From Nannocystis bainbridge (GTDB lineage: Bacteria; Myxococcota_A; Polyangia; Nannocystales; Nannocystaceae), in NCBI RefSeq assembly GCF_028368995.1, contig NZ_JAQNDL010000002.1, forward strand, positions 32,001 to 96,000: a DNA stretch of 64,000 bases, written 5' to 3'. Shown one piece after another: positions 10,375 to 50,482 of the stretch. The position numbers and the translations under genes are program-made. Position 1 is the first letter of the stretch; each line of letters begins with the position of its first letter. Below the pieces are notes generated by a model, which saw nothing but the letters and a program-made list of their open reading frames with translations, had not been told where the DNA came from and searched no databases.

Positions 10375-10516
10375 TCGGGCATGTGCTCGAGAGCATGTCC
10401 GATCGGGCATGTTCCATGGAGCATGCCTCGAGGAACATGATCGAAGAGACAGATGATGTCGCGGGTTGATGGGCGCCACGTCGCCATGGCGCGCGGGACA
10501 TGTCCCATGGGCCTGG
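10375..10516. repeat. 14-bp-phased CATG palindrome array
   Basis: Cores CATG at 10380, 10394, 10408, 10422 and 10436, and CAGA at 10450; a second pair of CATG at 10485 and 10499. Confidence 0.85.
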
Positions 10517-10539
10517 CCTGACGCGCGGGCGCGCGGCGC

Positions 10540-10569
10540 TTGACGCTGGCGCGCGGCCGGCGATAGCTT
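10540..10569 (+). promoter_or_regulatory. Sigma70-like promoter, leaderless geometry
   Basis: TTGACG-N18-TAGCTT, then 7 nt to the ATG at 10577. Confidence 0.5.
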
Positions 10570-10576
10570 CCCGGCC

Positions 10577-11644: not shown

Positions 11645-11669
11645 GGCGCGGGCGCGCGGCGCTCACGGA

Positions 11670-13403: not shown

Positions 13404-13580
13404 CGCTACCTGGCATGCTAACCGCGGCGGTCGGCGCTGCTGACGAGGGCATACGGCAAAAGGCCGGTCACGCTCGCCGCGAATCCGAGTTCGGGCTCGC
13501 AGGACGGGGCCAGGGGCGTCGCGCCGCGCAGGGCCGCGAAGCGGGCTCGGCCGGTCCGGCGCTCGCAGGCCGCGCCGGGC

Positions 13581-14160
13581 CGGGTCCTGGCAGGCATGTC
13601 ATGTCGCGCGCGGCGGCGATGCAAGACGACGAGCGGTCGACAGGGCTCGTGGGGCGGCTGGATCGCCGGCAGCGCGAGCAGGCGCGCGGAGATGTCCTTG
13701 CGGACATGTCATGTCGCGGGCGAGGGCGCGGCGTGGCGGCGGAGCGGAGATGTCCTTGCGGACATGTCATGTCACGGGTGATCGCGGGGCCGTGAGCGCT
13801 CGCGGAGGGAGCCGGGGATGGATGTCCGGAAACGGAGGGGATGTCCCTTGGGACATGCTGGGTCGAAGCGACTCCAGCGCCGGCGCCGGGGCACGCGGCG
13901 AGGGCTCCGCGGGCATGCCATGGCGGTCGCGGCGCTGGCGTGGTGCCAGCGACAGGCAAGCCGGCGGTATATGTCCTTGCGGACACGTCATCGCGCGGGC
14001 GATCGTCGTCGGCCATGGGCAACCGCGTGGACGAGCCGGGATGTCCTTGCGGACATGTCACGTCCCGGGCCGCAGATGTTGCGGTCGGAGAGCGTCGAGG
14101 CGGCGCGACGGCGGGCCCGACGAGCGCAGAAATGTCCTGGCGGTTCCGCCGAGTCGGGGG
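13581..14160. repeat. Cluster of about 8 direct copies of a ~30-bp repeat (GATGTCCTTGCGGACATGTCATGTCGCGGG) separated by unique sequence
   Basis: Near-exact copies start at 13691, 13749, 13970 and 14040; degenerate copies start at 13581, 13840, 13900 and 14131. Confidence 0.8.
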
Positions 14161-14325: not shown

Positions 14326-14408
14326 CAGGACATGCTCGAATGGTCATGTCCTTGGAGACATGTAGTAGAGGACATGACGATATCGGCATGTCCTTCGGGA
14401 CATTCTGC
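14326..14408. repeat. 14-bp-phased CATG palindrome array
   Basis: CATG at 14331, 14345, 14359, 14373 and 14387; CATT at 14401. Confidence 0.85.
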
Positions 14409-14421
14409 CCGAGGCCGAGGC

Positions 14422-15942
14422 TCAGGGCGCTTCTTCGCCCTCGAGGCCGTGCGCCAGCGGCAGGGTGAACGTGAACACCGTGCCGGTGTGGTCGCTGGCG
14501 ACCTGCATGCGGCCGTCGTGGGCGTCGACGATGCTGCGGGCGATCGACAGGCCGAGGCCGAGGCCCTTCTTGCCGCCGCGGACCGTCGACCAGAACGGCT
14601 CGAAGATGTGGGGCAGGTCGGCCTCGTCGATGCCGGGCCCGTGGTCGCCGACGGCGAAGCGGACCTGGCCGCCCTCGATCTCGCCGTCGACGGTGACCTC
14701 CTGGCCGGACGCGCTGAACTTGATCGCGTTGTCGAGCAGGTTGCCGAACACCTGGGCGATCCGGGTGCGGTCGCAGAACAGCGGGGCCTGGGCCATGCGC
14801 AGGCGAGCGACCAGGCGCACTCTCTTTTTGTCCGCGAGCGGCTTCTGCAGCGCGAGCGCCTCCTCGACGATCTCGCGGGCGTCGGCGACCTCGCGCTCGA
14901 GCACGGTGGCGCGGCCGGCCTGGGCGCCGGCGAGGTCGAGCAGGTTCTCGGTGAGGCGCTCGATGCGGGCGGCGCTGCGCTGGATGACGGCGACGTTCTC
15001 CTCGGCGTCGCGGAGCTTCTTGACCAGCACGGTGGTGCCGAGGGTGATGGCGCTGAGCGGGTTGCGCAGGTCGTGCGAGACGACGGTGAGCACGTCCTCG
15101 CGGGCCTGGCTGGCGCGCAGGGCCTCGGCGTGTTGGCAGGCGTTGTCGAGGGCGAGGGCGAGCCGGTCGGCGAGGCGGCGCACCAGATCGAGGTCCTCGG
15201 CGTCGAGGCGGCGCGCGGCCAGCAAGCGGACGACACCGAGCGCGCGATCGCGGGCGATCAGCGGCGCGACCAGGCCGGTGCGCAAACCGAGCTCGTGCAG
15301 CGGCGCATCGAGGCGGCCGAGGTCGTCGAAGCCGCGGGCGCGGCTGTCCCGAAGGACATCCAGGGCGTGGTCGTGCAGCGGGAACAGGTCGTGCAGCGGC
15401 CGCTCGTGCAACAGGGCGGCGTCGGCGTGGGCGAGGCCGATCAGGCGCAGCTCGTCCTCGGCCTCGAGCAGCGAGACGAGGGCGACGTCGCCGAGGCGCG
15501 GGGCCAGCAGCTCGGCGCCGAGCTGACCGACGCGGGCGACTTCGAGGGACTCGAGCAGCAGGCGACCGGCGTCGTCGAGCAGCCCGGCGGCGGTTTGGCG
15601 GCGCCGCTCGGCGCCGACGTCGGTGAGCACGGCGACGGCCGCGACCACGGCCCCGGCGCTGTCACGCACCGGCACGGCGCGCACGTGGACGTGGACGACC
15701 TCGCCGCCGGCGGTGACGCGGCGGACATCCTCGTCGATGACGGCGCCGGCGAGGCAGCGCGCGAGCGGGTGATGGCGAGGGTCGTCGGGGAAGTAGGCCA
15801 GGAGGGCCGCCGCGGCGCCGCTGGCGGCCACGGGGGTGCCGTGCGGCGCGGCGGCGACGACGGCGTCGAGGGAGCCGAGGCGGGCGAGGGCGTCGACGAT
15901 CCGGCGCGCGGGATCGGGGAGGACAGCAACGGGCTCGCGCAT
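14422..15942 (-). CDS. Cytoplasmic sensor histidine kinase (PAS-like/GAF + HisKA + HATPase_c)
   Basis: H-box VSHDLRNPL, N-box NLLDNAIKF, G1 DHGPGI, G2 GLGLGLSI; no transmembrane segment apparent. Confidence 0.9.
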   Translation of the reverse strand: MREPVAVLPDPARRIVDALARLGSLDAVVAAAPHGTPVAASGAAAALLAYFPDDPRHHPLARCLAGAVIDEDVRRVTAGGEVVHVHVRAVPVRDSAGAVVAAVAVLTDVGAERRRQTAAGLLDDAGRLLLESLEVARVGQLGAELLAPRLGDVALVSLLEAEDELRLIGLAHADAALLHERPLHDLFPLHDHALDVLRDSRARGFDDLGRLDAPLHELGLRTGLVAPLIARDRALGVVRLLAARRLDAEDLDLVRRLADRLALALDNACQHAEALRASQAREDVLTVVSHDLRNPLSAITLGTTVLVKKLRDAEENVAVIQRSAARIERLTENLLDLAGAQAGRATVLEREVADAREIVEEALALQKPLADKKRVRLVARLRMAQAPLFCDRTRIAQVFGNLLDNAIKFSASGQEVTVDGEIEGGQVRFAVGDHGPGIDEADLPHIFEPFWSTVRGGKKGLGLGLSIARSIVDAHDGRMQVASDHTGTVFTFTLPLAHGLEGEEAP

Positions 15943-17922: not shown

Positions 17923-18858
17923 TCACGGGCCGGTCCACACGTAGCCGGCGACGGCCTCGTACTGGTAGCCGAACATCGCCACCGCGCTGTCGCGCTCGCC
18001 CTCGCTGGTCGTGTAGAAGTGGTCGCCCTTGCCGTAGAGGCGGAACAGCGGGACCGCGCCGCACTGCGGGTCGGTGGCGATGTGGCCGAGCGGGCCCTCG
18101 GGCGTGGCCGCGTTCTCGCAGGTCGCGCTGGTGGTGTAGAAGCGGCGGCCGTCGCCCTTGAGGCAGCGGTAGAACGGGACCAGGCCGGTGCCGGGGGCCG
18201 CGTAGAGGAAGAAGAAGTTGAGCGACTCGGGGCTGAAGTCGCCGGACATCGCCTCGGCGGCGTCGACCGTATAGAAGTGGCCGAGCGTCGGGCTCGAGCT
18301 GCGGTGGACGCCGACGCGGCAGCCGGGCAGGGCGCCCTCGTCGCACACGCCGTCGCAGTTGTCGTCGAACACGTTGCACGCCTCGGCCTTGTCGGGCTTG
18401 CAGACCAGGCCGCACATCTGCCCGGGCGCGAGCTGCTGCTCGCAGCCGTTGTTCGGATCGGCGTCGCAGTCGAACCAGCCGTCGTCGCACTCGCCGAGGG
18501 CGCACTGGCCCGCGCTGCAGGCCGACGTGGCCCGCGGGATCACGCAGCTGATGCCGCACTTGCCGCAATTGGCGGGGTCGGTCATGAGGTCGACGCACTG
18601 CACGCCGCAGGTGATCAGTGGGTCGCACACGAGCGGCGGGTCGTCGACGCCACTGCCGCTCGTGGAGCTGCTGGTGTCGCCCGTGGAGGTCGGCGGGGCG
18701 TCGGTGGTGCCGGTGGTGCCGGGCTCGCCGGTGCTCGTCTCGGTGCCGGTCGCGTCGGGCCCGGTCGGGGTCGAGGCGGTCGAGCTGTCGGCCCGGCCGT
18801 CGTCGCCGCAGGCGGGCAGGAGCGTCAGCGCGACGAAGAGACATGTCCCGGAGGACAT
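17923..18858 (-). CDS. Cys-rich lipoprotein with C-terminal HFYT-type (DUF5648-like) repeats
   Basis: LLPAC lipobox; CVDLMTDPANCGKCG; EACNVFDDNCDG; repeated HFYT/RFYT motifs. Confidence 0.7.
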   Translation of the reverse strand: MSSGTCLFVALTLLPACGDDGRADSSTASTPTGPDATGTETSTGEPGTTGTTDAPPTSTGDTSSSTSGSGVDDPPLVCDPLITCGVQCVDLMTDPANCGKCGISCVIPRATSACSAGQCALGECDDGWFDCDADPNNGCEQQLAPGQMCGLVCKPDKAEACNVFDDNCDGVCDEGALPGCRVGVHRSSSPTLGHFYTVDAAEAMSGDFSPESLNFFFLYAAPGTGLVPFYRCLKGDGRRFYTTSATCENAATPEGPLGHIATDPQCGAVPLFRLYGKGDHFYTTSEGERDSAVAMFGYQYEAVAGYVWTGP

Positions 18859-18905
18859 GGCGCGAGCACCATGGCGTGATGGCCATGTCCCGGAGGACAT
18901 GGCAC
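18837..18905. repeat. 14-bp-phased CATG palindrome array overlapping the start codon of the 17923-18858 gene
   Basis: CATG at 18842, 18856, 18870, 18884 and 18898. Confidence 0.85.
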
Positions 18906-18947
18906 ATGCGCCAGGTCGAAGCAGCGGGGTCCCGCGGGGCATGGCGC

Positions 18948-20330
18948 TCAGGCCAGGATCCCGGTGAGGTGCTCGGTGGTCTCGCCGCCGTTGAAGCCGT
19001 AGCTGGGGGTGTCGATGCCGAGCGCGCGCAGGATGGTGACGTGGACCTTGCAGAGGTTGCCGCCCTGCTCGCGGTAGTGGTAGCCGCGGACCAGCTTGCC
19101 GCCGGCGCCGCCGGCCAGGACCACCGGCATCTCGGCGGTGCTGTGCTTGTAGCCCTCGCCGTACTCGGACGCCCCGTAGACGCAGGCGCGGTCGAGCACG
19201 CTGACGCCCATCGGGTCGACGGCGGCGGCGAGGTGGTCGAGCAGGCGGGCGAACGCCAGCATCTGGTACTCGGTGATGCTGCGGACGTGCTCCCACTGAC
19301 CGTCGTGGCAGACCTGGTGCATCCCGTTGGGCACGCCGAGGTTGTTGAACACGTGGGTGGTGGCCGGCGAGCTCAGCATGAACGAGAACACGCGGGTGAG
19401 GCCGCAGTTGAGCGCGGCGGCCAGCAGCCCGGCCATGATGTCGGTGCGGGCGACGACGTCGGCCGAGTCGCCGGGGGCGGCGGGGATGATGTCACATGTC
19501 CCGGAGGACAGATCGAGGCGGCGCTGGACCTCGCGCAGGTGGTCGAGGTGGGCCTCGAGCCGCTGCTTGTCGGTGCCGCCGAGGCGGCCGCGCAGGCCCT
19601 CGGCGTCGGCCATGACGGCGTCGATGAGGGTGACGCGGCGGGTCAGCGCCATCAGGTCGGCCGGCACGTCGAACAGCATCGAGTAGAGCTGCGCGGGGCT
19701 GTGGATCGCCCCGACCGGCGAGTCGGGGCCGGTGAACGAGATGGCGTTCCAGTGGCCGTAGTCGTGGAAGCGGGCCTCGCTGACGCCGAGGCACAGCGAA
19801 CGGAACCGCGAAGGCGTGTTGCCGTAGAACTGCTCGTGACCGGCGATGTACTGGTCGAGGGTCGGCCGCAGGCAGGTCAGGGTGTGCGACGGGTGATCGA
19901 AGCCCTCGGGGCGGATGCGGTCGCCGGTCATCGCCACCATGAAGCCGCGCATGTGGCCGTCGCTCTGGCCGTTGTCGGGCTGCGGGACCTCGGTCTTGGG
20001 CTCGAGGCCGGTGGCGACGCTGACCTTGTGGGCGGCGAGCGGCGTGAGCAGCGGCGAGGGCGTGAAGTCGGCGCCGAGCGTGGGCGGGGTCCAGACGTCG
20101 CCGCCGGGGCTGTTGGCGCCCTGATCGGCGCCGTGCCCGGCGTGCCACGGGACGCCGTTGGCCCAGTAGAACAGGCCGAAGATCGGGTCGCTGCTCGGGT
20201 CGGCGGCGCGGGCCTCCTCGGCGAACATCGCCTCGAGCGGCGGCAGGGCGAGGGCCACGGCGGCGCCGCCGACGGCCCCGCGCAGGACGGTGCGGCGGGA
20301 GATGGGCGGTTTGCGGATCAGGAAGGTCAT
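18948..20330 (-). CDS. DUF1552-family protein with Tat-like signal
   Basis: ISRRTVLRGAVGGAAVALALPPLEAM; DKQRLEAHLDHLREVQRRL; TRV; MPVVLAGGAGG. Confidence 0.85.
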   Translation of the reverse strand: MTFLIRKPPISRRTVLRGAVGGAAVALALPPLEAMFAEEARAADPSSDPIFGLFYWANGVPWHAGHGADQGANSPGGDVWTPPTLGADFTPSPLLTPLAAHKVSVATGLEPKTEVPQPDNGQSDGHMRGFMVAMTGDRIRPEGFDHPSHTLTCLRPTLDQYIAGHEQFYGNTPSRFRSLCLGVSEARFHDYGHWNAISFTGPDSPVGAIHSPAQLYSMLFDVPADLMALTRRVTLIDAVMADAEGLRGRLGGTDKQRLEAHLDHLREVQRRLDLSSGTCDIIPAAPGDSADVVARTDIMAGLLAAALNCGLTRVFSFMLSSPATTHVFNNLGVPNGMHQVCHDGQWEHVRSITEYQMLAFARLLDHLAAAVDPMGVSVLDRACVYGASEYGEGYKHSTAEMPVVLAGGAGGKLVRGYHYREQGGNLCKVHVTILRALGIDTPSYGFNGGETTEHLTGILA

Positions 20331-26630: not shown

Positions 26631-26710
26631 CGGCTGGCCGAAAGGGCATGTCCTTTCGGACATGGCCATTCGGGCATGCGCGTTTGGGCATGTCTGAACG
26701 GGCAGGTTCA
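26630..26710. repeat. 14-bp-phased CATG palindrome array filling a convergent intergenic gap
   Basis: GCTG at 26633; CATG at 26647, 26661, 26675 and 26689; CAGG at 26703. Confidence 0.85.
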
Positions 26711-26712
26711 GA

Positions 26713-27360
26713 TCAGTTCGGCAGGCAGGGGATGAGGACGCCGTCGTTGCTGATGACGCAGGTGCTGCCCGCGGGGCACTCGGGCGCTTCGGGGCTGCCC
26801 TCGCACAGAGGGACGCACACGGGACCGAGGGTGTCGGGGTCGGTGCCGAGGCAGATCGATTGCGCGTCGCAGGAGTCGATGAGGCGCGTCGGGTGGGGCT
26901 CGATGGTGCACGGCTCGCCGACGCCGTCAGGGTCGGGGTCGAGCGGGACGCAGGCGGTCGTGTGCCAGGGGGCGCCCTCCTCGCTGCTGGCGGGGACGCA
27001 CTTCTCGCCACTGGGACAGTTCTGCAGGAAGGGGTTGCAGGTGCTGCAGCGGGCCTGCTGTTCGCCGAGGCCGGCGACGCAGTTGCCGACGTCGGGCGGG
27101 GTGATGAAGGTGCCGCCCTCGCTGCTGGTGGCGGCGGTGCCTGGATCGGGCTCGACCGAGGTGGTGGTCGGCGCGGCGGTGGTGCTGGTCGCGGTGGTGG
27201 TGGTCGTCGTTGAAGGGCCGGTTGTCGTGGTGAGGCCGCCCGTGCTGTCCGGATTGCTGTCAGTGCCGTCGGTGGTGGACATCGGCGCCTGGGGGCCGCA
27301 GGCGACGGTGAGGAGCGCGAGGGCGAAGGGTAGAGCCAGGGCGGAAGCAGGCGAGGTCAC
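26713..27360 (-). CDS. Thr-rich, Cys-rich lipoprotein
   Basis: LTVAC lipobox, T-rich linker, CNPFLQNCPSGEKCVP...C; TACGCT 6 nt before the GTG start. Confidence 0.75.
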   Translation of the reverse strand: MTSPASALALPFALALLTVACGPQAPMSTTDGTDSNPDSTGGLTTTTGPSTTTTTTATSTTAAPTTTSVEPDPGTAATSSEGGTFITPPDVGNCVAGLGEQQARCSTCNPFLQNCPSGEKCVPASSEEGAPWHTTACVPLDPDPDGVGEPCTIEPHPTRLIDSCDAQSICLGTDPDTLGPVCVPLCEGSPEAPECPAGSTCVISNDGVLIPCLPN

Positions 27361-35671: not shown

Positions 35672-35817
35672 GCCGGCCTGAGCCGCAGTCGGCTTCGCTT
35701 ATCGGCGTTCACACGGTCTTCGCATCGGGCAGGGCCGGCGGACGCTGGCGCGGGGGACACCCCTGTGCGACGCTGTCGCGGTCGACTGCTTTGATTTACG
35801 AGATGCGGAGATTGGCG

Positions 35818-37623
35818 ATGCGAAATTCACTACTGCTGACGGCGGCGCTCGGCGCTGCGTGGACCCTGGCGACGCCGCAGACGGCCGAGGCCTGTGGCGG
35901 CGTGTTCTGCGACGGCGGGCTGCCGAACTCGATGCCCGTCAACCAGGACGGCGAGAACGTGCTGTTCGTGCTCGACCAGAACGAGGTCGAGGTCCACATC
36001 CAGATCAGCATCGATCCCAACACCAACGCGCAGAAGTTCGCGTGGCTGATCCCGATCGCCCAGATCCCCGAGTTCGAGGTCGGCTCGCAGCCCTTGTTCG
36101 ACGCGCTGCTGAACTCGTCGGTGCCGACCTACCAGGTCCAGCAGACCTTCGAGGTGTGCGGCGAGGACGGCATCTCCGGCGGCATCACGACCAACGCGAC
36201 CGGCACCGGCGCGCCCGGTGACTCGGCCGGCGGTAGTACCAGCGGCGACGATTCGGACGGCGGCGAGGACCCGGTGCTGTTCAAGACCACCGCCGGCGCG
36301 TTCGAGATCGTGGTCCTGCAGGACAAGCAGATCGGGCCGATCAAGGACTGGCTGGTCAACAACGATTACCAGTGGATCGACGGCTCGGAGACGGTGCTGC
36401 AGCAGTACCTCGACGAGGGCCAGGTGATCGTCGCGCTCAAGCTGGCGGCCGGGTCCGACGGCGGTGACGTGCACCCGATCGTGCTGCGCTACCCGTCGAA
36501 CGAGAACTGCTTCCCGCTGCGGCTGACGCGGTTCGCGTCGATCGAGAACATGGACATCCGCGTGTTCGTGCTCGGCGACAAGCGGGCGGCGCCGACCAAC
36601 TACCGCCACGTCCTCGTCAACCCGCTGAAGATCGACTGGCTGTCGTTCGCGACCAACTACAAGGAGGTCATCACCAAGGCGGTCGACGACCTCGAGGCCG
36701 ACGGGCTGGCGTTCGTGACCGAGTTCGCCGGGGCGTCGAGCGTGGTCCAGCCGTTCGCGTTCAACTTCTACAGCACGTCGTGGAACGAGGCGGCGTTCAT
36801 CGGCATCCCGCCCGAGCAGGTGGTCCAGGTGCTGAACGAGCAGGGGCTGACGCAGTGCTTCGACCCCGAGTTCTGCTTCTACAACCACCCGCTGGTCGAG
36901 AGCCTGCTGAACGATTTCCTGCCGGTGCCCGACGGCCTGACGGCGGAGGAGTTCTACTGGAACCTGCCCGCCTACGTCGACCAGATCGACGCGATGGCGT
37001 GGGGCGACGGCAGCGCGTTCGCGCAGGCGCTCGACAGCCGGATCATCGCGCCGGGCGAGCACGCGCAGGAGCTGATCGACACGTATCCGTACCTGACGCG
37101 CATGTACACGGTGATCTCGCCCAACGAGATGATCGCGGACCCGATCTTCCACATCAACCCGGACCTGCCCGACGTGGCGAGCTTCCGCTCGGCGACCGAG
37201 TACAACCTGTGCGACGGCAACAGCGTGGTGACGCTGCCCGACGAGCGCGAGATCTTCGTGCCGAACGGCGGGCCGTGGCCGGAGTTCATCGGCGAGATGT
37301 GGTGGGCCGAGGAGGTCCAGCAGGTCGCCCTCAAGGGCAAGCCGATGCACCTCGTCAACAACACCGCGGCGATCAACAAGAAGATCGAGGAGTGGAACCT
37401 GGCCCACGGTTGGCCGCGCTTCCCCGACGCGCCGACGACCAGCGCCAGCGACACGGACACCGACGGCTCGGGCTCGAGCGGCGGGCCCGACTCTGCCACC
37501 GGCGGGGGACAGAACGACAGCAGCGGCTGCGGCTGCCGCAGCGACGGGACCCCGGGCGCCGGGATGCTGGCGCTCGTGGGGCTGGGGCTGCTGGCGCAGC
37601 GGCGCCGGCGAACCCGCGGCTGA
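35818..37623 (+). CDS. DUF2330-family protein with MYXO-CTERM tail
   Basis: AEACGGVFC, VNQDGENVLF, FAWLIP, YLTRMYT, ADPIF; C-terminal GCGCRSDG...LVGLGLLAQRRRR. Confidence 0.8.
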   Translation: MRNSLLLTAALGAAWTLATPQTAEACGGVFCDGGLPNSMPVNQDGENVLFVLDQNEVEVHIQISIDPNTNAQKFAWLIPIAQIPEFEVGSQPLFDALLNSSVPTYQVQQTFEVCGEDGISGGITTNATGTGAPGDSAGGSTSGDDSDGGEDPVLFKTTAGAFEIVVLQDKQIGPIKDWLVNNDYQWIDGSETVLQQYLDEGQVIVALKLAAGSDGGDVHPIVLRYPSNENCFPLRLTRFASIENMDIRVFVLGDKRAAPTNYRHVLVNPLKIDWLSFATNYKEVITKAVDDLEADGLAFVTEFAGASSVVQPFAFNFYSTSWNEAAFIGIPPEQVVQVLNEQGLTQCFDPEFCFYNHPLVESLLNDFLPVPDGLTAEEFYWNLPAYVDQIDAMAWGDGSAFAQALDSRIIAPGEHAQELIDTYPYLTRMYTVISPNEMIADPIFHINPDLPDVASFRSATEYNLCDGNSVVTLPDEREIFVPNGGPWPEFIGEMWWAEEVQQVALKGKPMHLVNNTAAINKKIEEWNLAHGWPRFPDAPTTSASDTDTDGSGSSGGPDSATGGGQNDSSGCGCRSDGTPGAGMLALVGLGLLAQRRRRTRG

Positions 37624-37840: not shown

Positions 37841-37876
37841 ACGGCGGGTCCTTCGGCGAGCCGCCTGCCTGGCGCC

Positions 37877-37958
37877 TGGGGCATGTCCGTACGGACATGC
37901 CTTTTAGAGCATGTCTCTCCGGGCATGTCCGCGGGGACATGCCCCGGAGGTCAGCCGA
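37877..37958. repeat. 14-bp-phased CATG palindrome array between convergent genes
   Basis: CATG at 37882, 37896, 37910, 37924 and 37938; CAGC at 37952. Confidence 0.85.
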
Positions 37959-38772
37959 CCGGGGCGTTGGCGATCCGGTGGACCAGCCAGAACAGGTTGG
38001 GGCCGTGGCGGTCGGGCAGCTCGCGGCGGACCGCGCGGAGGCTGTCGCACAGGGTCTCGAGGCCGCGGTCGAGGACGGAGGCGCGGCGGGCCTCGAGGCG
38101 CTGACCGACGCCGATCGGCTGCCAGCTGGTGCCCCACGGGATCGCCCACGTCAGGACGCGGTCGCCTGCGCGCAGGGCCTGCGACAGGTTGCTGTCGGTG
38201 AGCGCGACCGGCTCGTCGCGCAGGAGGTCCTTGCCGCGCACGCGCTGCTTGCCGGGGTTCACGTCGTCGACGGTGACCAGCAGCAGTCGCGCCTGCAGGC
38301 AGGCGTCGAGGGCGGCGCGCTGGCGGCCGTCGAGCGGCAGGCCGGCGCTGGCGAACATGTCGACCAGGCGGATGCCCTTGGGGTCGCGGTAGCCGTAGAG
38401 GCAGAAGGTCTGGGCGGCCCGGCGCAGGTCGGCGTTGTTCTTCTCGGCCGGGGTGGCGGCGCCGAAGAAGCCGTTCATCACCTGGGTGACGAACGGGCCG
38501 AAGCGACGGGTGGCGAAGCTGCCGAGCATCGTCTCGACGCGCTCGAAGTCGCCGCGCTCGTAGCGGCCGAACTTCGGGGTGAGCGGCCGCTCGCTCGTCA
38601 GCGGCGCCGCGGGAGCGGGGTTGCGCGCGCGCGCGTCCACCTGCGCCTGCGCGAGCTCCTGCTCGGAGGTGAGGAACGGGCCGGTGCCGCGACGCTTGCG
38701 CCGCGAGTCCGAGCGAGTTGCGGCCGCGGCGGGCGGCTCCGGGGTGCCGGGTTGTTCGGGTGTGTCGGTCAT
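37951..38772 (-). CDS. Hypothetical cytoplasmic protein
   Basis: High-GC3 frame from MTDTPEQPG; 4-bp overlap with the upstream lipoprotein gene. Confidence 0.65.
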   Translation of the reverse strand: MTDTPEQPGTPEPPAAAATRSDSRRKRRGTGPFLTSEQELAQAQVDARARNPAPAAPLTSERPLTPKFGRYERGDFERVETMLGSFATRRFGPFVTQVMNGFFGAATPAEKNNADLRRAAQTFCLYGYRDPKGIRLVDMFASAGLPLDGRQRAALDACLQARLLLVTVDDVNPGKQRVRGKDLLRDEPVALTDSNLSQALRAGDRVLTWAIPWGTSWQPIGVGQRLEARRASVLDRGLETLCDSLRAVRRELPDRHGPNLFWLVHRIANAPVG

Positions 38773-43866: not shown

Positions 43867-45141
43867 ATGAAGCGGACCCTGCTCGGAACTTCTTTCTTCG
43901 CCACCCTCCTGCTCGCCACCTCGTTCTACGCGGGCAAACAGCCGGCTCTGGCCAACGCGGCTCCGGCCGCGGGCTCCGAGGTCGACCTCGGCGGCGGGTT
44001 CACGCTGCTGCGTCTCGCGGTCCCGGCCGACGGCCGCATCGGCGACATCCTGCGCAAGAACGCGTTGATCTCGAGCGGCTTCGAGGTCATCGACCGCCGC
44101 AGCATCCCGGCCGCGCTGATCAAGGCCAACGACTTCGACCAGAAGGGCTGGCAGGACATCGGCGCCCAGGCCGTCATCCTCGCCGACGAGGTCGGCGGTC
44201 AGTTCAAGTTCCGCCTGTTCGACATGGGCGCCGGCGGCAAGCCGGTGCTGTCGCGCGGCTACGCGGCCAACGACCCGCTCAAGGCCGCCAACCGGTTCAT
44301 GAACGACGTCATCGAGCACTACACCAAGATCCCGGGTGTGTTCGGCTCGCGCATCGCGTTCGTCCGCACCAACCGGACGCCGACGGTGACCAAGAACGTG
44401 TTCACGATCGAGATGAACGGCGAGTCGCCGGCCTCGATCACCAACAACCGCTCGCTCAACATCTCGCCGTCGATCGGGCCGGGCGGGCAGGTGCTCTTCA
44501 CCTCCTACGCCAAGCGCAACCCCGACCTGTGGATGAGCTCGGGCGGCTCGCTGAGCCGGATCAGCACCCAGCGCGGCCTCAACCTCGGCGGCGTGATGAG
44601 CCCCGACGGCTCGAGCATCGCCCTGACGCTGTCGAAGGACGGCAACTCCGAGATCTACCTCATCGACACCGGCGGCACGATCAAGGCCCGCCTGACCAAC
44701 AACGCGGCGATCGACGGCTCGCCGACGTGGAGCCCGGGCTCGAACCAGCTCGCGTTCGTGTCGAGCCGCTCGGGCGGCCCGCAGGTGTTCCGCATGGGCT
44801 CCAACGGCGCCGGCGCGGCCCGCCTGACCAAGCAGGGCACCTACAACCAGACGCCCGACTGGAACCCCGGCCAGGGCGCGCGCGGCAACCTCGTCGCCTA
44901 CGCCGGCCGCGACAACTCCAACCGCTACGACATCTTCGCCATCGACGTCGGCAGCGGCAAGCTGTCCCGCCTGACCCAGAACCCGGGCCGCAACCTCGAC
45001 CCGAGCTGGTCGCCCGACGGCCGCATGATCGCCTTCCAGTCGACCGTCGGCGGCATCGTCGTCGCCAACGACAAGGGCAACAACCAGCAGGTCATCGCCA
45101 AGGCCGGCACCACGCCCGACTGGGGCCCGCGCAGCGAGTAG
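43867..45141 (+). CDS. tolB: TolB (PD40 beta-propeller)
   Basis: Signal peptide; GVFGSRIAFV, SPDG, LSKDGNSEIY, SPTWSPG, FVSSRSGGPQVF and PSWSPDGR. Confidence 0.85.
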   Translation: MKRTLLGTSFFATLLLATSFYAGKQPALANAAPAAGSEVDLGGGFTLLRLAVPADGRIGDILRKNALISSGFEVIDRRSIPAALIKANDFDQKGWQDIGAQAVILADEVGGQFKFRLFDMGAGGKPVLSRGYAANDPLKAANRFMNDVIEHYTKIPGVFGSRIAFVRTNRTPTVTKNVFTIEMNGESPASITNNRSLNISPSIGPGGQVLFTSYAKRNPDLWMSSGGSLSRISTQRGLNLGGVMSPDGSSIALTLSKDGNSEIYLIDTGGTIKARLTNNAAIDGSPTWSPGSNQLAFVSSRSGGPQVFRMGSNGAGAARLTKQGTYNQTPDWNPGQGARGNLVAYAGRDNSNRYDIFAIDVGSGKLSRLTQNPGRNLDPSWSPDGRMIAFQSTVGGIVVANDKGNNQQVIAKAGTTPDWGPRSE

Positions 45142-45172
45142 GTCCTTCGGGACATGTCCCAACAGTCAGGTG
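45136..45172. repeat. Three-unit 14-bp-phased element spanning the tolB stop and the ppx start
   Basis: TAGG at 45139, CATG at 45153 and CAGG at 45167 (TAGGTCCTTCGGGACATGTCCCAACAGTCAGG). Confidence 0.7.
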
Positions 45173-46104
45173 AGCCTGCGACGCCGCGCGCCGCGGATCC
45201 GCGAGGATCCTGGCGCGCGGTCATTGATATCGGGACCAACAGCGTCCTGCTGCTGATCGCGCGCTGGCACGGCGACGACCTCGAGATCGCGCTCGACCAG
45301 GCGACGATCACCCGCCTCGGCAAGGGCGTGGCCGCGTCGGGAGTGCTGGCGCCCGAGTCGATCGCGCGCACGCTCGCGGTGCTGAAGCAGTACCGCGAGA
45401 CGGCGGAGCGCCATGGGGCGACGCCGCTGGCCGTGACGACCGAGGGCGTGCGCCTGGCCAGCAACCGCGACGATTTCCTGACGCCCGCGGCCGCGGTGCT
45501 CGGGGCGCCGGTGCGGCTGCTCAGCGGCGCGGAGGAGGCCGAGCTGTCATACCGCTCGGTGGCGCAAGAGCTGGGCCCGACGACGGCGCTGCGCGTGCTC
45601 GACATCGGCGGCGGCTCGACCGAGCTGGCCGTCGGCGAGGGCGAGCGGCTGATCTCGTCGGTGTCGCACCCGATCGGCGCGGTGCGACTGTTCGAGCGGT
45701 TCGTGACCCAGGATCCGCCGGCGCCGAGCGAGGTGGCGCAGATCGAAAAAACGGCCCTGGAGACGCTGCAGCGCGGGCAGCCGCTCGATCCGGAGCCCGT
45801 GCTCACCGGCCTCGCGGGCACGGTCACGACCGCGGCGGCGATGCTGCTGGGGCTGACGCAGTACGACCGCGAGCAGGTCGACGGCTCGACCTTCACGATC
45901 GATCAGGTCCGCGACCTCCGCGATCGCGCGGCCCGGGTGACCGTCGCCGAGCGCTGCCAGATCTGGCCCACGCTCGAGCCTGCGCGCGCCGACGTGATCG
46001 TCGCCGGCATGACGATCCTGCTGGCGGCGATGCAGCACTGCGGGGCCACCAGCCTGGCGGTGCGCGACCGCGGGCTGCGTTACGCGCTGATCGAGAGGGA
46101 ATGA
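45154..46104 (+). CDS. Ppx/GppA-family phosphatase, single-domain type
   Basis: VIDIGTNSVLL, TRLGKG, SGAEEA, DIGGGSTE, AGTVTT, RADVIVAG and GLRY. Confidence 0.9.
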   Translation: MSQQSGEPATPRAADPRGSWRAVIDIGTNSVLLLIARWHGDDLEIALDQATITRLGKGVAASGVLAPESIARTLAVLKQYRETAERHGATPLAVTTEGVRLASNRDDFLTPAAAVLGAPVRLLSGAEEAELSYRSVAQELGPTTALRVLDIGGGSTELAVGEGERLISSVSHPIGAVRLFERFVTQDPPAPSEVAQIEKTALETLQRGQPLDPEPVLTGLAGTVTTAAAMLLGLTQYDREQVDGSTFTIDQVRDLRDRAARVTVAERCQIWPTLEPARADVIVAGMTILLAAMQHCGATSLAVRDRGLRYALIERE

Positions 46105-46931
46105 TGCGCGTCGACCTGCACTGCCACTCGACCTGCTCGGACGGCAGTCTGACGCCGACCGAGGTGGCGACGCGGGCCCAGGCCGAAGGGGTCGAGCTGT
46201 TCTGCCTGACCGACCACGACTCGGTCGCGGGCTACCAGGCGACCGCGGCTGCGCTGCCGGGAGCCCGCGTGCTGCGCGGGGTGGAGCTGAGCTGCCGCTT
46301 CGCCGACAAGACGGTCCACTTGCTGATCTACGGGATCCGCGACGGCTCCGGGCTGACGGCGCTGGAGGTCCGGCTCGAGAGCGTGCTCGAGGACAGGCGG
46401 ACGCGGCTCAAGGCGATCATCGCCCGCCTGCGCCGGCTCGGGGTCAAGCTCGACGGGGAGAAGATCCTCATCGCCACCCACGGCCACACGCCGGGTCGGC
46501 CCGATGTCGCGCGCGCGCTGGTCGAGGCGGGCGTGGTCCGTTCGCACCGCGAGGCGTTCGAGCGCTACCTCCGCGACGGTGGCCCGGCCGACGTGGCGCT
46601 CGAGCGGGTGTCGCTCGACGAGGGGCTGCGGCTCGGTCGCAACGCGGGGGCGAAGATGTCGCTGGCGCACCCGCACACGCTGCGCTCGCCGCAGCTGGTC
46701 GACGAGATGTACGCGCAGTACCGCTCGGCCGGGCTCGAGGGCATCGAGGCGTACTACGGCCGCTACGGGTCGCAGGAGCGCGGCCAGTGGCTGAACCTGG
46801 CCAAGCGGCGCGAGCTGGTGGTGACGGGCGGGTCGGACTTCCACGGGGCGGCGGTGCCGGAGATCCGGCAGCCGGGGATCGAGCTGCCGGAGCGCCACGC
46901 GGAGCGCCTGCAGGCCTGGCTGGCGGAGTGA
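46101..46931 (+). CDS. PHP-domain phosphoesterase (YciV/TrpH-like)
   Basis: DLHCHSTCSDG, LTDHD, GVELS, LAHP, GIEAYY and TGGSDFHG. Confidence 0.9.
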   Translation: MMRVDLHCHSTCSDGSLTPTEVATRAQAEGVELFCLTDHDSVAGYQATAAALPGARVLRGVELSCRFADKTVHLLIYGIRDGSGLTALEVRLESVLEDRRTRLKAIIARLRRLGVKLDGEKILIATHGHTPGRPDVARALVEAGVVRSHREAFERYLRDGGPADVALERVSLDEGLRLGRNAGAKMSLAHPHTLRSPQLVDEMYAQYRSAGLEGIEAYYGRYGSQERGQWLNLAKRRELVVTGGSDFHGAAVPEIRQPGIELPERHAERLQAWLAE

Positions 46932-46940
46932 GCCGGGGCG

Positions 46941-47008
46941 AGTGATGTGTCTGTTGCGACATGTGTGAAGCGCCAGGTCCGAAAGGACAGGTGCGAAGGG
47001 GCAGGTGA
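46941..47008. repeat. 14-bp-phased array (CAGG-rich variant) running into the next start codon
   Basis: TGTG at 46946, CATG at 46960, and CAGG at 46974, 46988 and 47002. Confidence 0.75.
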
Positions 47009-48624
47009 GCGTGGACGCGGGGACCGGCGAGACCGAGGCGGAGCGGCGGGGCGACGAGCGGCCGGTGCTGCTGCGCGTCGAGGGGCTGGCGATCGCGCGG
47101 CCCGACGGCTCGCCGCTGGTCGAGGCGCTGACGCTGACGCTGCGCGCCGGCGAGACGGTGGCGGTGTTCGGGGCTAGCGGGGCCGGCAAGTCGACGCTGA
47201 TGGCGGCGCTGCACGACGCCGAGGGGCTGCGGGCGCGCGGCTTCGCGGTCCGTGCGGCCGCGTTCACGACGGCCGGCGCGGTCGGGATCGTGCCGCAGCG
47301 AGGGGCGCTGCTCGACCACCTCAGCGCGGCCGGTAACATCGCCCTGGCGCTGCGCAACGCCGACAAGCCGACGGCGGCCAGCGCGGCGGCGGTCGAGCGC
47401 TGGATCGCCGCGCTCGATCTGCCGCGGCGCTGGAGCGGGGGCGGGCAGGCGGTGGCGCACGTCAGCGGCGGCGAGGCGCAGCGGCTGGCGGTCGCGCGCA
47501 CGCTGGCGGGCGGGCGCCAGATCTTGCTGCTCGACGAGCCGTCGGTCGGGCTCGATCCGCTGCGCGTCGATCGGCTGGCGGCGGCGCTGCGCGGCCAGAT
47601 CGCTGGCCAGGGCGCGGCCGCGCTGGCGATCACCCACGACCTCGAATTCGCGGCGGGCTTCGCCGATCGCTTCCTCTACCTCGACCCGGCCGCGGGCCAG
47701 CTGGTCGAGCTGCCGATCGCCCGCGGCGAGTCGCCGGCGGCGACGGTCGCGGCGCTGGGGGCGGCGCTGCGCGAGCGCATGGCCCGAGAGACAGGTCATG
47801 CGGGCGGGGGCGCGCGCCGGCGCCTGGGGCCGCGGCTGCGAGCTGTCCTTCGGGACATGCTCGCTCCGTTCGCGGTGCTGGCCCGGGCGCTGGTGGCTGC
47901 CCCGGCGGCGCTGGTCCGGCCGCGCGATTTCTTCGAGGTGGCGCGGGTGACGTTCGCCCAGGGCCTGTGGCGGCCGCTCCTGTTCATCGCCGCGGTGTCG
48001 CTGCTGGTCGGGTTCACGCTGCTCTACATCTTCCACCGCGCGTTCTCGGGCGGCGGGGTGCCGGTGCGGCCGGACAAGATCTTCGCGCTGATCGGGTCGA
48101 TGCACGTGCTCGCGCTGGCGCCCCCGCTGTCGGGCATCCTGTTCGCGGCGACCTCGGGCAGCGCGGTCGCGGCCTGGCTCGGCGGGATGTCGCTGACGCG
48201 CCAGACGGCGGCGCTGCGCGGGCTCGGGATCGCCGAGGCGCGCTACCTGTGGCTGCCTGCGGTGCTCGGGCTGGCGCTGGCGTACGTGGTGCTGGCGGCG
48301 GTGTTCACCGGCGGGATGGTGCTCGGCGGGCTGCTCTACTTGAAGGTCCAGGTGCCGGCGCTCGCCGATCCGTGGGCCGTCGTCACCGCGGACTTGCTCG
48401 ATCCCCCGGCCGCGCGGGCGCCGTTCCGCGCGCGCGCGCTCGTGCTGGTCGCGCTGTACGCGGGCGGGATCGCGGCCGACGCGGTGGCGAAGGGGGCCAG
48501 CGACAAGGCCAGCGCAGACGCGGTGACGGCGGCGATGGTCCGCAGCGTGATGGCCTGTACGCTGTGGATCGTGGCGCTCGAGCTGGCGTCGCTGGTGGTG
48601 CTGTATGGCGCTCGCGGTGGATAA
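47005..48624 (+). CDS. Fused ABC ATPase and MlaE-type permease
   Basis: Walker A GASGAGKST, signature VSGGEAQR, Walker B LLLDEP, H-loop ITHD; C-terminal half LAPPLSGILFAATSGSAVAAWLGGM...QTAALRGLGI...YLWLP is MlaE-like. Confidence 0.75.
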   Translation: MSVDAGTGETEAERRGDERPVLLRVEGLAIARPDGSPLVEALTLTLRAGETVAVFGASGAGKSTLMAALHDAEGLRARGFAVRAAAFTTAGAVGIVPQRGALLDHLSAAGNIALALRNADKPTAASAAAVERWIAALDLPRRWSGGGQAVAHVSGGEAQRLAVARTLAGGRQILLLDEPSVGLDPLRVDRLAAALRGQIAGQGAAALAITHDLEFAAGFADRFLYLDPAAGQLVELPIARGESPAATVAALGAALRERMARETGHAGGGARRRLGPRLRAVLRDMLAPFAVLARALVAAPAALVRPRDFFEVARVTFAQGLWRPLLFIAAVSLLVGFTLLYIFHRAFSGGGVPVRPDKIFALIGSMHVLALAPPLSGILFAATSGSAVAAWLGGMSLTRQTAALRGLGIAEARYLWLPAVLGLALAYVVLAAVFTGGMVLGGLLYLKVQVPALADPWAVVTADLLDPPAARAPFRARALVLVALYAGGIAADAVAKGASDKASADAVTAAMVRSVMACTLWIVALELASLVVLYGARGG

Positions 48625-50326
48625 TTGGCGACTCGCGTCGATGGCCGGTCTGGCCGGGCTGGTGCTGGCGGGCGCGCTGCTGGCCGCCGGGCGCGGGGCG
48701 CTGATCGAGGCGGCGGCGATCGAGCCGTTCCGCGTCGAGGTGGCGTCGGCCCACGCGCCGGCCGCGGACGGGCGCTGGTCGGGGCGGGTGGTGCCGCCCG
48801 AGCTGACGGCGCGGACGGTCGTGCGCGTCGACGGGCAAGTCATCGATGATGCTTCTGGACATGTGCGAGAGGACATGTCCGATGGGACATTATCGGTCGC
48901 GCTGGGTGACGCGCCGGGGCTGCGGCTGATCGAGGTCGAGCTGCCGCGGCAGGGCGGCGCCGAGGTGGCGACCGACGCGGCGCTGATCGGGCCGTTCCGC
49001 GAGCGCTGGGGCGAGGGGCCGGAGTGTGGGGCGGGGGTGCGGGTCGCGGCGGCGGCGATCGATCGTCTGGTGCTGCCGCCGCTGCGGGCGAAGCTGCTGG
49101 CGGCGGCGCCGTCGATCGGGCTGCTCGGGCCGGCGACGACGATCGAGGAGGCGAGCGTGACGCTGCTCGGCGACGCGCTGTTCTTCCGGGTGGCGCTCGC
49201 GGGGGAGCACCGCATCGCGGTGGCAGGCAAGCTCGAGGTGCGGGTGGCCGGGTCGCGTCAGCTCGGCGTGCGGCTGGCTTCGCTCGGGCCGGTCGAGTTC
49301 TCCGGCACGCTGCGCACGCGGGCGACGCTCGGGGCCGCGGCGCTCGGGGCGGCCATCACCGGCCCGCTGGCGCCGCTCGGAGCGCTCGCCGGCTACGCGC
49401 TGGCGGACGGCTACATCGATCGGCGGGCGCGCCAGGAGGTCGAGACGCAGCTGACGGCGGCCCTGGCGGTGGCCAGCGCGATCCCGCTGATCCCGGAGCG
49501 CGCCGAGCTGATCGTCGGCGAGCCGCGCTCACGGGCGACGCTGGCGTTCTGCGCGGTGGCGATCGAGGCGGGCGGGATCGCGGCGCACCTGTCCGTTCGG
49601 CCAGATCGGCCGGAGCCGCGGACCGGCGAGGAGGCGGGCCGGGTGCGCACGCGCCTGGCGGCGATCCCGGGGCCGGCGCGGCACGGGCTGTCGCTGCCGC
49701 CGCTGCGGCCGGTGGCGCCGACGGCCGACGCGGAGGTCGAGCTCAGCCTCGACACGGTCGACGCGCTGCTCGACGCGTGGACGGCCAACGGGCTGCTCGG
49801 CGAATTGATGGGGCGGGCCCAGTGGGTCGAGCGGGTCGACGAGGAGCTGGGCGAGTGGACGACGCTCGGGCTGGAAGGCATCGAGGTGCGGCTGCCGCCG
49901 TCCCTGTCTCCGGGGACAGGTGACGGCTGGGCCCTGACGATCGCGGGGCTGCGGCTCGATCTGACGGGCAGCGAGGGCGACGATCCCGGCGAGGTGCTGG
50001 TGGCAGGGCGCGGGCTGGTGCGCCCGCACTACGACGGCGCGCGCGGGCGCATCGCCCTGGCGGGGACGATCGACCGCCTGCGCCTGTCCTGCGCCCGCGC
50101 GGGGGCGCTGTGGCCGTGCTTCGCGGCGCTGCTCGAGCTGGGCGACGTCGAGGCGAGGCTCGACGCGCTGCTGGCCCCGGGCGCGGCCGGGCTGCCGGGG
50201 ATCGACGTGCGGACGCTGCTGCGCGACGGGACGCAGGCGCTGCGCGAGGGCGGGCTGGAGCTGGCCGACCTGACGATCAGCTACCCGGCGCACGGGGTGC
50301 TGCGGGTGGCCGCCGAGGTGCGCTGA
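48605..50326 (+). CDS. Hypothetical membrane-anchored or exported protein
   Basis: N-terminal hydrophobic segment and beta-rich body; overlaps the end of the ABC fusion gene. Confidence 0.7.
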   Translation: MALAVDNWRLASMAGLAGLVLAGALLAAGRGALIEAAAIEPFRVEVASAHAPAADGRWSGRVVPPELTARTVVRVDGQVIDDASGHVREDMSDGTLSVALGDAPGLRLIEVELPRQGGAEVATDAALIGPFRERWGEGPECGAGVRVAAAAIDRLVLPPLRAKLLAAAPSIGLLGPATTIEEASVTLLGDALFFRVALAGEHRIAVAGKLEVRVAGSRQLGVRLASLGPVEFSGTLRTRATLGAAALGAAITGPLAPLGALAGYALADGYIDRRARQEVETQLTAALAVASAIPLIPERAELIVGEPRSRATLAFCAVAIEAGGIAAHLSVRPDRPEPRTGEEAGRVRTRLAAIPGPARHGLSLPPLRPVAPTADAEVELSLDTVDALLDAWTANGLLGELMGRAQWVERVDEELGEWTTLGLEGIEVRLPPSLSPGTGDGWALTIAGLRLDLTGSEGDDPGEVLVAGRGLVRPHYDGARGRIALAGTIDRLRLSCARAGALWPCFAALLELGDVEARLDALLAPGAAGLPGIDVRTLLRDGTQALREGGLELADLTISYPAHGVLRVAAEVR

Positions 50327-50386
50327 TCGGGGCGCCGGGCGGGTGACGAAGCAGGCGAGGCTGGCCGGGCACCCGTGCGGGGCCTG

Positions 50387-50482
50387 AGAGACATGGTCGA
50401 GACGACATGTCAAAGAGGACATGTCGAATGGCGCATGTTCATCGGGGCATGTCGCCAAGGACATGGCCCTCCAGACAGGCCG
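50387..50482. repeat. Longest 14-bp-phased CATG palindrome array (7 units), between convergent genes
   Basis: CATG at 50392, 50406, 50420, 50434, 50448 and 50462; CAGG at 50476. Confidence 0.9.

Follow-up and report, generated by a model that had tools for sequence, protein, structure and literature searches.

The stretch of Nannocystis bainbridge DNA analysed here (hereafter the window: 64,000 nucleotides, G000:C3:32001-96000, from an assembly, G000, of 11.05 Mb in 5 contigs with 71.5% G+C) carries a dispersed family of short palindromic repeats that are tiled into arrays with a period of exactly 14 bp. A preliminary description of the window, made from its letters alone, had located ten loci with CATG-like cores 14 bp apart. 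All ten hold in-phase cores, six of them as exact CATG runs and four in degenerate form. To that description we add the placement of the arrays behind stop codons and in convergent gaps, their folding on two strands, a sense-strand excess of U.G combinations, copies inside genes, and one further locus whose first core lies at 48860. The loci and their contexts are listed below in window coordinates. The repeats have no assigned strand; plus and minus refer to genes, given as called genes or open reading frames (ORFs), or to the strand that was folded, and z is the z-score of predicted RNA folding.

10375-10507, array: five in-phase CATG cores (10380-10439) and a two-core run (10485, 10499) shifted from their phase by 7 bp; in a tandem gap, 36 nt past the stop of ORF 9779-10339 (plus); z -4.18.
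14326-14409, array: five CATG cores and a terminal CATT unit; immediately downstream of the histidine-kinase gene 14422-15942 (minus), whose stop is at 14422; minus-strand z -4.05.
18837-18952, array: five consecutive CATG cores from 18842 and an in-phase core at 18940; abuts the DUF1552 gene 18948-20330 (minus) at its stop (18948); relatives have only one or two cores here.
26642-26711, array: four CATG cores, the first at 26647, and a terminal CAGG unit; fills the 82-bp gap in which the TrkH-family gene 24648-26630 (plus) and ORF 26713-27360 (minus) converge; z -4.55 (plus) and -5.88 (minus).
27427-27468, degenerate units: cores GATG, GATG and CATT, 14 bp apart (positions counted by hand).
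30355-30408, two hairpin units CCTGGCC-N4-GGTCAGG: cores CCTG, CAGG, CCTG and CAGG at the 14-bp period; starts 16 nt past the stop of ORF 29597-30343 (plus).
37863-37960, array: five CATG cores from 37882, with degenerate ends CCTG (left) and CAGC (right); in the convergent gap between the DUF2330 gene 35791-37623 (plus) and ORF 37951-38772 (minus); z -7.19 (plus) and -7.34 (minus); present in five of five relatives.
45139-45172, single unit GGTCC-TTCG-GGACA with a degenerate unit: cores TAGG, CATG and CAGG; begins at the stop codon of ORF 43867-45141 (plus); near-identical in five of five relatives.
46946-47005, array: cores TGTG, CATG, CAGG, CAGG and CAGG at the 14-bp period; fills the 73-bp tandem gap between ORFs 46101-46931 (plus) and 47005-48624 (plus).
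48855-48896, the locus missed by the preliminary description: two CATG cores from 48860 and a CATT unit.
50387-50484, array: six CATG cores from 50392 and a terminal CAGG unit; in the convergent gap between ORF 48605-50326 (plus) and the HxlR-family gene 50483-50872 (minus); z -4.06 (plus) and -4.01 (minus).

The genes beside these arrays are functionally unrelated: they include a histidine kinase, a TrkH-family transporter, DUF1552 and DUF2330 genes and an HxlR-family regulator.

The spacing lies far outside chance expectation. CATG-N10-CATG occurs 26 times in the window against 0.70 expected, a count that none of 100 dinucleotide shuffles attains, and the pattern TGYCC-N4-GGRCA has 19 matches against 0.37 expected. 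The genome-wide histogram of CATG-CATG distances, which the preliminary description had proposed, gives spikes at 14, 28 and 42 bp. There are 3736 pairs at 14 bp, compared with 72 at 13 bp, 79 at 16 bp, about 70-115 at each distance near 14 bp, and 74 after local shuffling; further peaks stand at 28 (2073), 42 (1586), 56 (751) and 70 bp (383). When all 256 tetramers are scanned for recurrence at distance 14, ACAT, ATGT, CATG, GACA and TGTC come out on top. Strict CATG chains number 1265 with two cores, 328, 213, 159, 75, 22, 2 and 1 with three to nine, and 1 with twelve; when merged, the strict chains make 1793 loci. Arrays range from 2 to 7 units, rarely up to 20, and 954 of them have at least three in-phase cores, compared with 2 after local shuffling. 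Their density along the contigs is even, with no domain structure (mean 32 loci per 200 kb, range 11-50). The largest loci are C3:1501543-1501883 (20 in-phase cores) and C3:1237910-1238190 (15); contig C3 carries nine of the twelve largest, and mostly these take up an entire convergent gap.

Counts of half-site pairs over the genome define the unit as an inverted repeat of 14 bp, TGYCC-N4-GGRCA, in which exactly 4 bases separate two 5-bp arms. TGTCC-Nk-GGACA is present in 1987 copies at k=4 and in at most 16 at each other k from 0 to 12. The complementary arrangement, GGRCA-Nk-TGYCC, is present in 1771 copies at k=0 versus 28-78 for k=1-6. Taken by itself the half-site is unremarkable, its 23,769 copies ranking 13 of 30 among 5-mers of equal composition, and the enrichment is confined to the N4 and N0 dyads. 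In its degenerate form, TGYCC-N4-GGRCA, the unit is counted 2828 times in the genome. Where two units abut they give GGRCA/TGYCC, and the CATG core is their joint, CA/TG. The period is thus 14 bp because a 5+4+5 inverted repeat tiles without gaps. The preliminary description had instead reasoned from the helix, with each site rotated by 120 degrees and three units making four turns. Since the number 14 follows from the tiling, this argument is superfluous, and the same unit is abundant singly.

The array logo, nnGGRCATGYCCnn, bears out the previously noted tendency toward GGR before and YCC after the core, with G at 0.70-0.71 at the two positions before R and C at 0.75-0.76 after Y. The spacer centre is enriched in A/T (0.59 at the two central positions versus 28.5% A+T in the genome). 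Loops use favoured words (CTTC, GATC, CGAA, TCGA and others) without a consensus, each word being about as frequent as its reverse complement. Array ends keep just the inner half-site (TGYCC on the left, GGRCA on the right) with background sequence beyond, and across the arrays of the genome the flanks hold no information past one degenerate unit per side and no conserved termini. Genome-wide, the positions of the unit are statistically independent and behave like a weight matrix, and the symmetric pair 5/10 within one unit is depleted (0.342 versus 0.424 expected). Symmetric hexamers are likewise rarer within arrays than independence predicts (GCATGC 282 versus about 413; ACATGT 1149 versus about 1279) and the mixed hexamers ACATGC and GCATGT commoner, while outside arrays GCATGC is the commonest NCATGN. 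A further 747 decamers GGRCATGYCC have no in-phase neighbour; 244 lie in convergent gaps, 199 in tandem gaps, 269 in genes and 35 in divergent gaps.

Neighbouring units differ outside the core, as had been remarked earlier: their non-core identity is 0.441, against 0.422 for random pairs. A micro- or minisatellite grown by slippage was considered and rejected, with non-core identity of 0.44-0.47 at lags of 1-4 against 0.42 for random units and only 1.6% of neighbours at least 90% identical. With a spacer of exactly 4, an abutment of exactly 0 and neighbours no more alike than random units, the original argument for selection on spacing rather than slippage holds.

Gene contexts were assigned with an in-house, crude codon-bias caller (8193 genes, 84.7% coding) whose starts are unreliable; it calls locus 48855, for example, "in gene". 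Among the 954 arrays, 808 are intergenic, 53 partly intergenic and 93 within genes. The 861 arrays outside genes divide into 488 in convergent, 339 in tandem and 34 in divergent gaps. Seen from the gaps, loci are held by 646 of 1498 convergent (43%), 586 of 5194 tandem and 120 of 1496 divergent ones (8%). Units per kb follow the same order, at 2.9 in convergent gaps, 0.9 in tandem gaps, 0.24 in divergent gaps and 0.11 in genes, a 12-fold difference between convergent and divergent. For arrays in tandem gaps, the median distance is 18 nt to the stop upstream and 190 nt to the following start. The first core mostly falls 0-25 nt past the stop codon, and it also happens, about 90 times for each of the two positions, that the stop codon stands in for TG(A) or for GGA in a degenerate first unit. 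Counted over genes, 1311 of 8193 have a unit within 100 nt past the stop, and 243 have one within 100 nt before the start.

The arrays also fold. We compared 150 tandem-context arrays, drawn at random from the 339, with dinucleotide shuffles and obtained a mean z of -4.1, with 81% of them below -2; the window arrays fold on both strands with z from -4.0 to -7.3. The pairs predicted in the 150 arrays centre on the middle of the spacer in 55% of cases and on that of the core in 18%. Elements of two units (n=1265) show complementarity above expectation at the arms and at the outer, non-consensus positions 1/14' (z +5.2) and 2/13' (z +6.3), and none in excess at the four loop positions. The pairing excess of five- and six-unit arrays sits at the terminal pairs, not the inner ones. 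Long-range pairing between array ends (CCTG...CAGG) was tried and rejected, the joint frequency equalling that expected under independence. Locus 37882 provides a single example, read by eye: in four of five relatives (G001, G010, G007 and G005) units 1 and 2 pair into a stem of 12 bp, with a-u and g-c exchanged at its two outer pairs; the window copy has wobble pairs and a mismatch at these positions, and G003 is off register.

The repeat is also asymmetric between strands. On the sense strand of the upstream gene, U.G combinations outnumber C.A combinations 993 to 620 in arrays. For single units the figures are 167 versus 76 in convergent gaps and 111 versus 67 in tandem gaps, and the bias is reversed in genes (91 versus 132). 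Within convergent arrays the plus-strand G+T of the arms drops from 0.505 beside the plus gene to 0.454 beside the minus gene.

The taxonomic range of arrays and of units differs. Using RCATGY four times at a 14-bp period as the search pattern for arrays, we counted 407 matches in G000, 183-220 in five genomes of the same genus (12-13 Mb each), 0-2 in five smaller genomes of that genus, and none in 30 genomes from other genera of the class. In 400 further genomes of the phylum just 4 had any, with 1-4 matches each, all of them perfect simple tandem repeats. Coding DNA of the array-bearing genomes matches the window at 87-94% identity; the array-less ones of the genus reach only 70-72% in trkH. 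The single unit reaches much further, with 1550-2090 copies in array-bearing genomes, 114-959 in the array-less genomes of the genus (controls 1-4), 87-169 in five of five genomes of a second genus and 67-696 in seven of seven of a third. It is weakly raised in genus g281 (5-20 copies versus controls of 2-7) and near background in ten further genera of the family (0-11 versus 0-10). A 400-kb sample of the array-less genome G009 repeats the strict geometry, with 35 copies at N4 against 0 at N3 and 1 at N5. In this sample 24 of 42 units lie in genes and the 18 intergenic ones at a median of 20.5 nt behind stops. On these comparisons the word is far older and wider than the arrays, into which it multiplied in a single clade whose genomes are large and closely related; by the same counts, lone dyads at gene ends are ancestral and the tiled arrays a derived expansion.

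Within that clade, array positions are stable. Loci 26647, 37882 and 50392 have an array at the equivalent intergenic region in five of five relatives, with 3-5 in-phase cores at the first and 2-5, separated by unalignable spacers, at the last. The intergenic region matching 10375-10507 has an array in G010, G007 and G005 too, and at locus 48855 relatives carry 2-3 cores, some with two or three such blocks. At orthologous loci cores and phase are retained, spacers and loops diverge, and unit number varies by whole units. Of 91 units, 43 align without gaps between G000 and G010; their identity is 0.88-0.98 for the core, 0.51-0.79 for the arms and 0.51-0.58 for the loops, figures in which the alignment may favour cores. 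Across 37 alignment breaks in 480 kb of G010, chains stand in both genomes at 15, in G000 only at 5 and in G010 only at 1. The more distant genomes of the genus have a different trkH neighbourhood, in which a trkA-like gene follows, and the gap is not comparable there. One of these distant genomes, G002, which is without CATG arrays, has its own tandem hairpin family, GACCCGGAGGGTCGGGAAG, with a period of 27-33 bp, at L039 (G002:C167, about 2338-2437) and on 5 other G002 contigs; at up to 2 mismatches it is found 16 times in G002, once in G008 and not in three others.

Strict spacing, free loops and persistence in three genera indicate a sequence-specific reader, and with enrichment confined to the dyads, one of two-fold symmetry would be the simplest cause. 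This much of the binding platform proposed in the preliminary description we retain, and its helical argument is unneeded. The reading that we tentatively favour, at somewhat short of an even chance, is that the family resembles bacterial interspersed mosaic elements (BIMEs), namely a dyad word with a reader, serving as hairpin modules at gene ends. We infer that such a reader exists and that it would recognise duplex DNA or the hairpin; effects on the transcript are put forward on the same footing. A two-fold-symmetric factor would read the word and reject a 3- or 5-base spacer, keeping geometry and core in place while the loops drift. A word behind a stop codon would be transcribed as the tail of the mRNA, where either strand could fold into a stem of 5-12 bp with a 4-nt loop. 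The stem-loops could then mark or shield transcript ends and separate convergent genes. Placement, two-strand folding, complementarity beyond the consensus and the sense asymmetry suggest that the intergenic word probably does act as a stem-loop at the ends of transcription units. It is possible, though rather unlikely, that a protein peculiar to the lineage forms polymers on the phased dyads, or binds the stem-loops of nascent RNA, and so sets these ends. Such protein-set gene ends might, at the same low confidence, amount to sequence-specific termination or insulation, mTERF- or SLBP-like in logic, with arrays where convergent genes meet.

A number of observations weigh against this BIME-like reading. 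The 747 lone decamers lack an in-phase partner and therefore cannot form a hairpin by themselves. No fewer than 1069 of 2826 classified single units (38%) lie within called genes, which a role at transcript ends leaves unexplained. In-gene copies and lone decamers together show that the word is not solely a transcript signal. Of 102 tRNA genes, only 4 are followed by an element within 150 nt. The arrays lead into no T-run: past the first 14 nt, taken up by the degenerate terminal unit, T makes up 0.09-0.18 of the 60 nt sense-downstream. Array-free 3' regions of genes fold about equally well (-0.43 versus -0.45 kcal/mol per nt). Covariation within longer arrays and across all neighbouring units is weak, and between G000 and G010 we count 7 pairing-preserving double changes against 4 in a slid control, from few and uncertainly aligned units. 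The sense skew is modest (arm G+T 0.514, z 3.3; loop G+T 0.506, z 1.1) and could be a transcription-linked mutation bias. Loop words are equally common in both orientations (sense loops CGAA 52 versus TTCG 37), and the loops are therefore not tuned as RNA tetraloops. No reader or binding protein was found, no systematic search having been made for one. The sequencing runs that match the window are metatranscriptomes or of uncertain type, each with a share of 0.05-0.15 of it, and consist of contigs only, which cannot reveal transcript ends; the four compared with it (X10, X7, X8 and X1) show no starts or ends, stretches that they leave uncovered carry no weight here, and they are uninformative on this point apart from a weak hint at 45184-45186. 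There, RNA-labelled contigs from two studies (X10 and X7) end about 20 nt behind the unit at 45141-45165, and a probable DNA run continues.

The alternative that survives best is a drive of the uptake type, in which fragments bearing the dyad are preferred by a dimeric DNA receptor at the surface or in the periplasm, and recombination spreads the word wherever it is tolerated; gene ends would be most tolerant because the inverted repeat can double as a terminator. We consider it unlikely, if less so than the other competitors. In its favour are the copies inside genes. These lie in real coding context (median G+C at third codon positions, GC3, of 0.92 in the called frame, which is the highest-GC3 frame in 95% of cases), are evenly spread along genes, and are biased in frame (576, 403 and 90). 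Their commonest frame reads x-V-P-x-D-x, often in repeated Pro/Ala/Ser-rich stretches, and they need rare codons (T-ending 3.7%, ACA 2.3% of Thr and GGA 2.8% of Gly codons), so that the word is kept or generated at the nucleotide level. Comparing G000 with G010, whose aligned coding DNA is about 90% identical, we find 17 in-gene copies shared, 10 in G000 only and 8 in G010 only, a retention close to neutral. The even density along contigs and a lineage-level "dialect" in three genera fit such a drive as well. Known uptake words are single and asymmetric, yet the half-site here is not enriched; to our knowledge none of them shows phased tiling, and we know of no report of competence for this organism. 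Nor would a drive predict the sense-strand U.G bias or the tight distance to stop codons. The accessible part of a preprint describes the same pattern for uptake sequences, about half of which lie in predicted terminators, with in-gene copies that are frame-biased and in permissive regions (10.1101/2025.10.24.684340). Intact ComEC and DprA homologues are present in the genome; both also match 10-11 of 14 control genomes and so do not discriminate.

The longest runs of in-gene copies stand in Pro/Ala/Ser-repeat genes with tandem repeats of 12-16 residues, which carry up to 13 in-frame units reading x-V-P-x-D-x. Examples are C3:712626-717846, C2:1216679-1218890 and C2:2066053-2070511, and some of the copies are 42 nt apart, equal to three units.

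Somewhat less probable than the uptake drive is the model of the preliminary description, a cooperative platform on duplex DNA for an abundant protein or filament that would act in chromosome structure, as a topological barrier or as a roadblock, with no role for RNA. Two strict spacings, independent weight-matrix-like positions and the A/T-enriched spacer centre are what a duplex-binding protein would leave, and the strand-symmetric loop words, the enriched isolated decamers and the even spread of arrays over contigs agree with it. By itself, however, the model does not predict placement 0-25 nt past the stop or the 12-fold contrast between convergent and divergent gaps, nor does it predict the sense-strand asymmetry or complementarity at non-consensus positions 27 nt apart. 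A candidate protein is missing here too, again with no systematic search.

Plain RNA hairpins without a reader, acting as intrinsic terminators or as blocks to 3' exonucleases and sharing their sequence as a legacy of common descent, seem to us improbable. Placement, folding, U.G bias and complementarity would all follow from them, and many gene ends without CATG arrays bear related single hairpins, CCTGTCC-N4-GGACAGG. Thermodynamics, however, tolerates loops of 3-8 nt, and N3 and N5 are some 100 times rarer than N4; moreover, it is the stem sequence that is fixed across three genera and the loops that are free. Intrinsic (Rho-independent) terminators in particular were rejected, since hairpin and position fit and the U-tract is absent. 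The elements are also rare after tRNA genes, and about 1000 copies lie inside genes.

We regard as very unlikely a selfish mobile repeat, either repetitive extragenic palindromes (REPs) or REPINs with their REP-associated tyrosine transposase (RAYT), or a miniature inverted-repeat transposable element. Hundreds to thousands of extragenic palindromes at gene 3' ends would suit it, as would a unit number that varies between species and the few neighbours that look recently duplicated (1.6% at least 90% identical versus 0.28% of random pairs). Against this, the Y1 transposase domain PF01797 is found in none of six array-bearing genomes by a search that matches 6 of 14 known genomes used as a control. 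The repeats have neither conserved flanks or termini nor a loop consensus, their positions are stable across species, and genera with only about 71% DNA identity still share the word.

Least probable of all, and close to negligible, is the methylation-read array that the preliminary description had offered as its alternative, in which CATG would be methylated and read as SeqA reads GATC: CATG is palindromic and in fixed phase and one D12-class methyltransferase gene is present, but CATG is just the joint between units, single units flanked by CCTG...CAGG are equally typical, the D12 gene is found in 34 of 41 relatives with or without arrays, and CATG is not depleted genome-wide (39,940 copies versus 27,770 after local shuffling). 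Vsr was not found in G000, and the presence of D12 shows no co-variation with arrays, other methyltransferase classes not having been searched. The same two results bear on a comparison with HIP1-like iterated palindromes, which are scattered over genes and spacers alike and co-occur with a cognate methyltransferase and a repair nuclease; the unit here proved 9 times denser outside genes.

How does the family compare with described systems? REP and BIME elements are short extragenic palindromes that form arrays at gene 3' ends or between convergent genes, can fold in the transcript and are reported to bind protein. The repeats described here are likewise foldable extragenic palindromes in hundreds to thousands of copies, in regular arrays at 3' ends and in convergent gaps. 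They differ in having a 14-bp unit instead of the 30-40 bp of a REP, and a loop that is free in sequence and fixed in length. A further difference is that 38% of single units lie in genes (808 of 954 arrays being intergenic) and that the word is common to three genera. In contrast to RAYT-associated REPs, there is no PF01797 in the six genomes and no descent from near-identical master copies. REP and PU-BIME families are listed in the accessible part of PMC2267715. With DNA uptake sequences, as far as the accessible text of the preprint describes them, the family shares a lineage-specific short word in thousands of copies, about half of them inverted repeats at gene ends, and frame-biased in-gene copies in permissive regions. 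Uptake sequences are a single asymmetric word of 9-12 nt over-represented in both orientations, whereas here dyads alone are enriched and phased tiling occurs.

The met-boxes of MetJ are tandem 8-bp palindromes in a few promoters. They resemble our arrays as tandem palindromic boxes of exact period that drift from box to box, implying that protein binds side by side, and differ from the thousands of sites found here behind stops and rarely before starts (243 versus 1311 genes). MetJ-like promoter operator arrays were rejected, with loci in 120 of 1496 divergent against 646 of 1498 convergent gaps and neighbouring genes that are functionally unrelated. The 3' stem-loop of animal histone mRNA, a short stem of fixed sequence with a 4-nt loop near the stop codon, is read by SLBP and defines the mRNA end. 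The likeness is one of working only, in the fixed stem and the 4-nt loop close behind the stop; the histone element belongs to another domain of life, and our unit also occurs as duplex-symmetric decamers and as in-gene copies. We know of no SLBP-type protein in bacteria. The Beggiatoaceae have abundant intergenic TAACTGA direct repeats, according to the accessible part of PMC4679880. These, too, are a short conserved word repeated in numerous dispersed intergenic arrays within one lineage; as described there they are direct heptamers, unlike the inverted repeat with fixed spacer found here.

At gathering score, Rfam 15 matches the window with one tRNA only and no family at the arrays. No description of the repeat was found in full-text searches for it in Sorangium or myxobacteria, a scope that excludes subscription papers and supplements. 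Taken together, these comparisons place the family outside RAYT-type REPs, uptake sequences, intrinsic terminators, microsatellites, promoter operators and Rfam families. By analogy it would work most like BIME/REP arrays and be distributed like uptake sequences. We accordingly rank the BIME-like reading first, followed in descending order by the uptake drive, the duplex platform, reader-less hairpins, a mobile repeat and methylation.

The window also contains single units outside the arrays, again without an assigned strand.

13690-14058: five dispersed single units, four of them TGTCCTTGCGGACA and one TGTCCCTTGGGACA, 58-130 bp apart in a stretch of about 0.9 kb without a called gene.
5137-5150: a single unit in the called gene 4473-6359 (plus).
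15345, 19497, 47844 and 51676: other single units within called genes.
22113: a single unit in the gap between two minus-strand genes.

Around the first of these, positions 13580-14130 hold six dispersed copies of a longer repeat of about 30 bp (GATGTCCTTGCGGACATGTCATGTCGCG-like), four of which share the loop TTGC. Unlike the arrays, the repeats at 13580-14130 look like recent local duplications or an operator-like cluster of sites. Elsewhere in the window, the gene at 7556-9619 encodes four DUF4215 cysteine-rich repeats and a proprotein-convertase P domain, and tandem DNA repeats of 93-96 bp within it (8679-9044) encode a CGDG...CDDGN motif. A tRNA gene lies at 62671-62742.

About one gene in six of this 11-Mb genome ends beside the word, which also stands between the genes of 43% of convergent pairs. 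If the putative reader acts on transcript ends, it would explain how genes are delimited in very GC-rich genomes without U-tract terminators, and myxobacteria that produce natural products could be engineered with defined terminators or insulators built from the elements. Should the word prove to be a signal for uptake or drive instead, such signals, known from two families, would gain their first dyad-type example beyond them. The graded distribution, with units in three genera, arrays in one clade and ten genera at background, offers a handle by which the gene for the reader may be sought through phylogenetic profiling.

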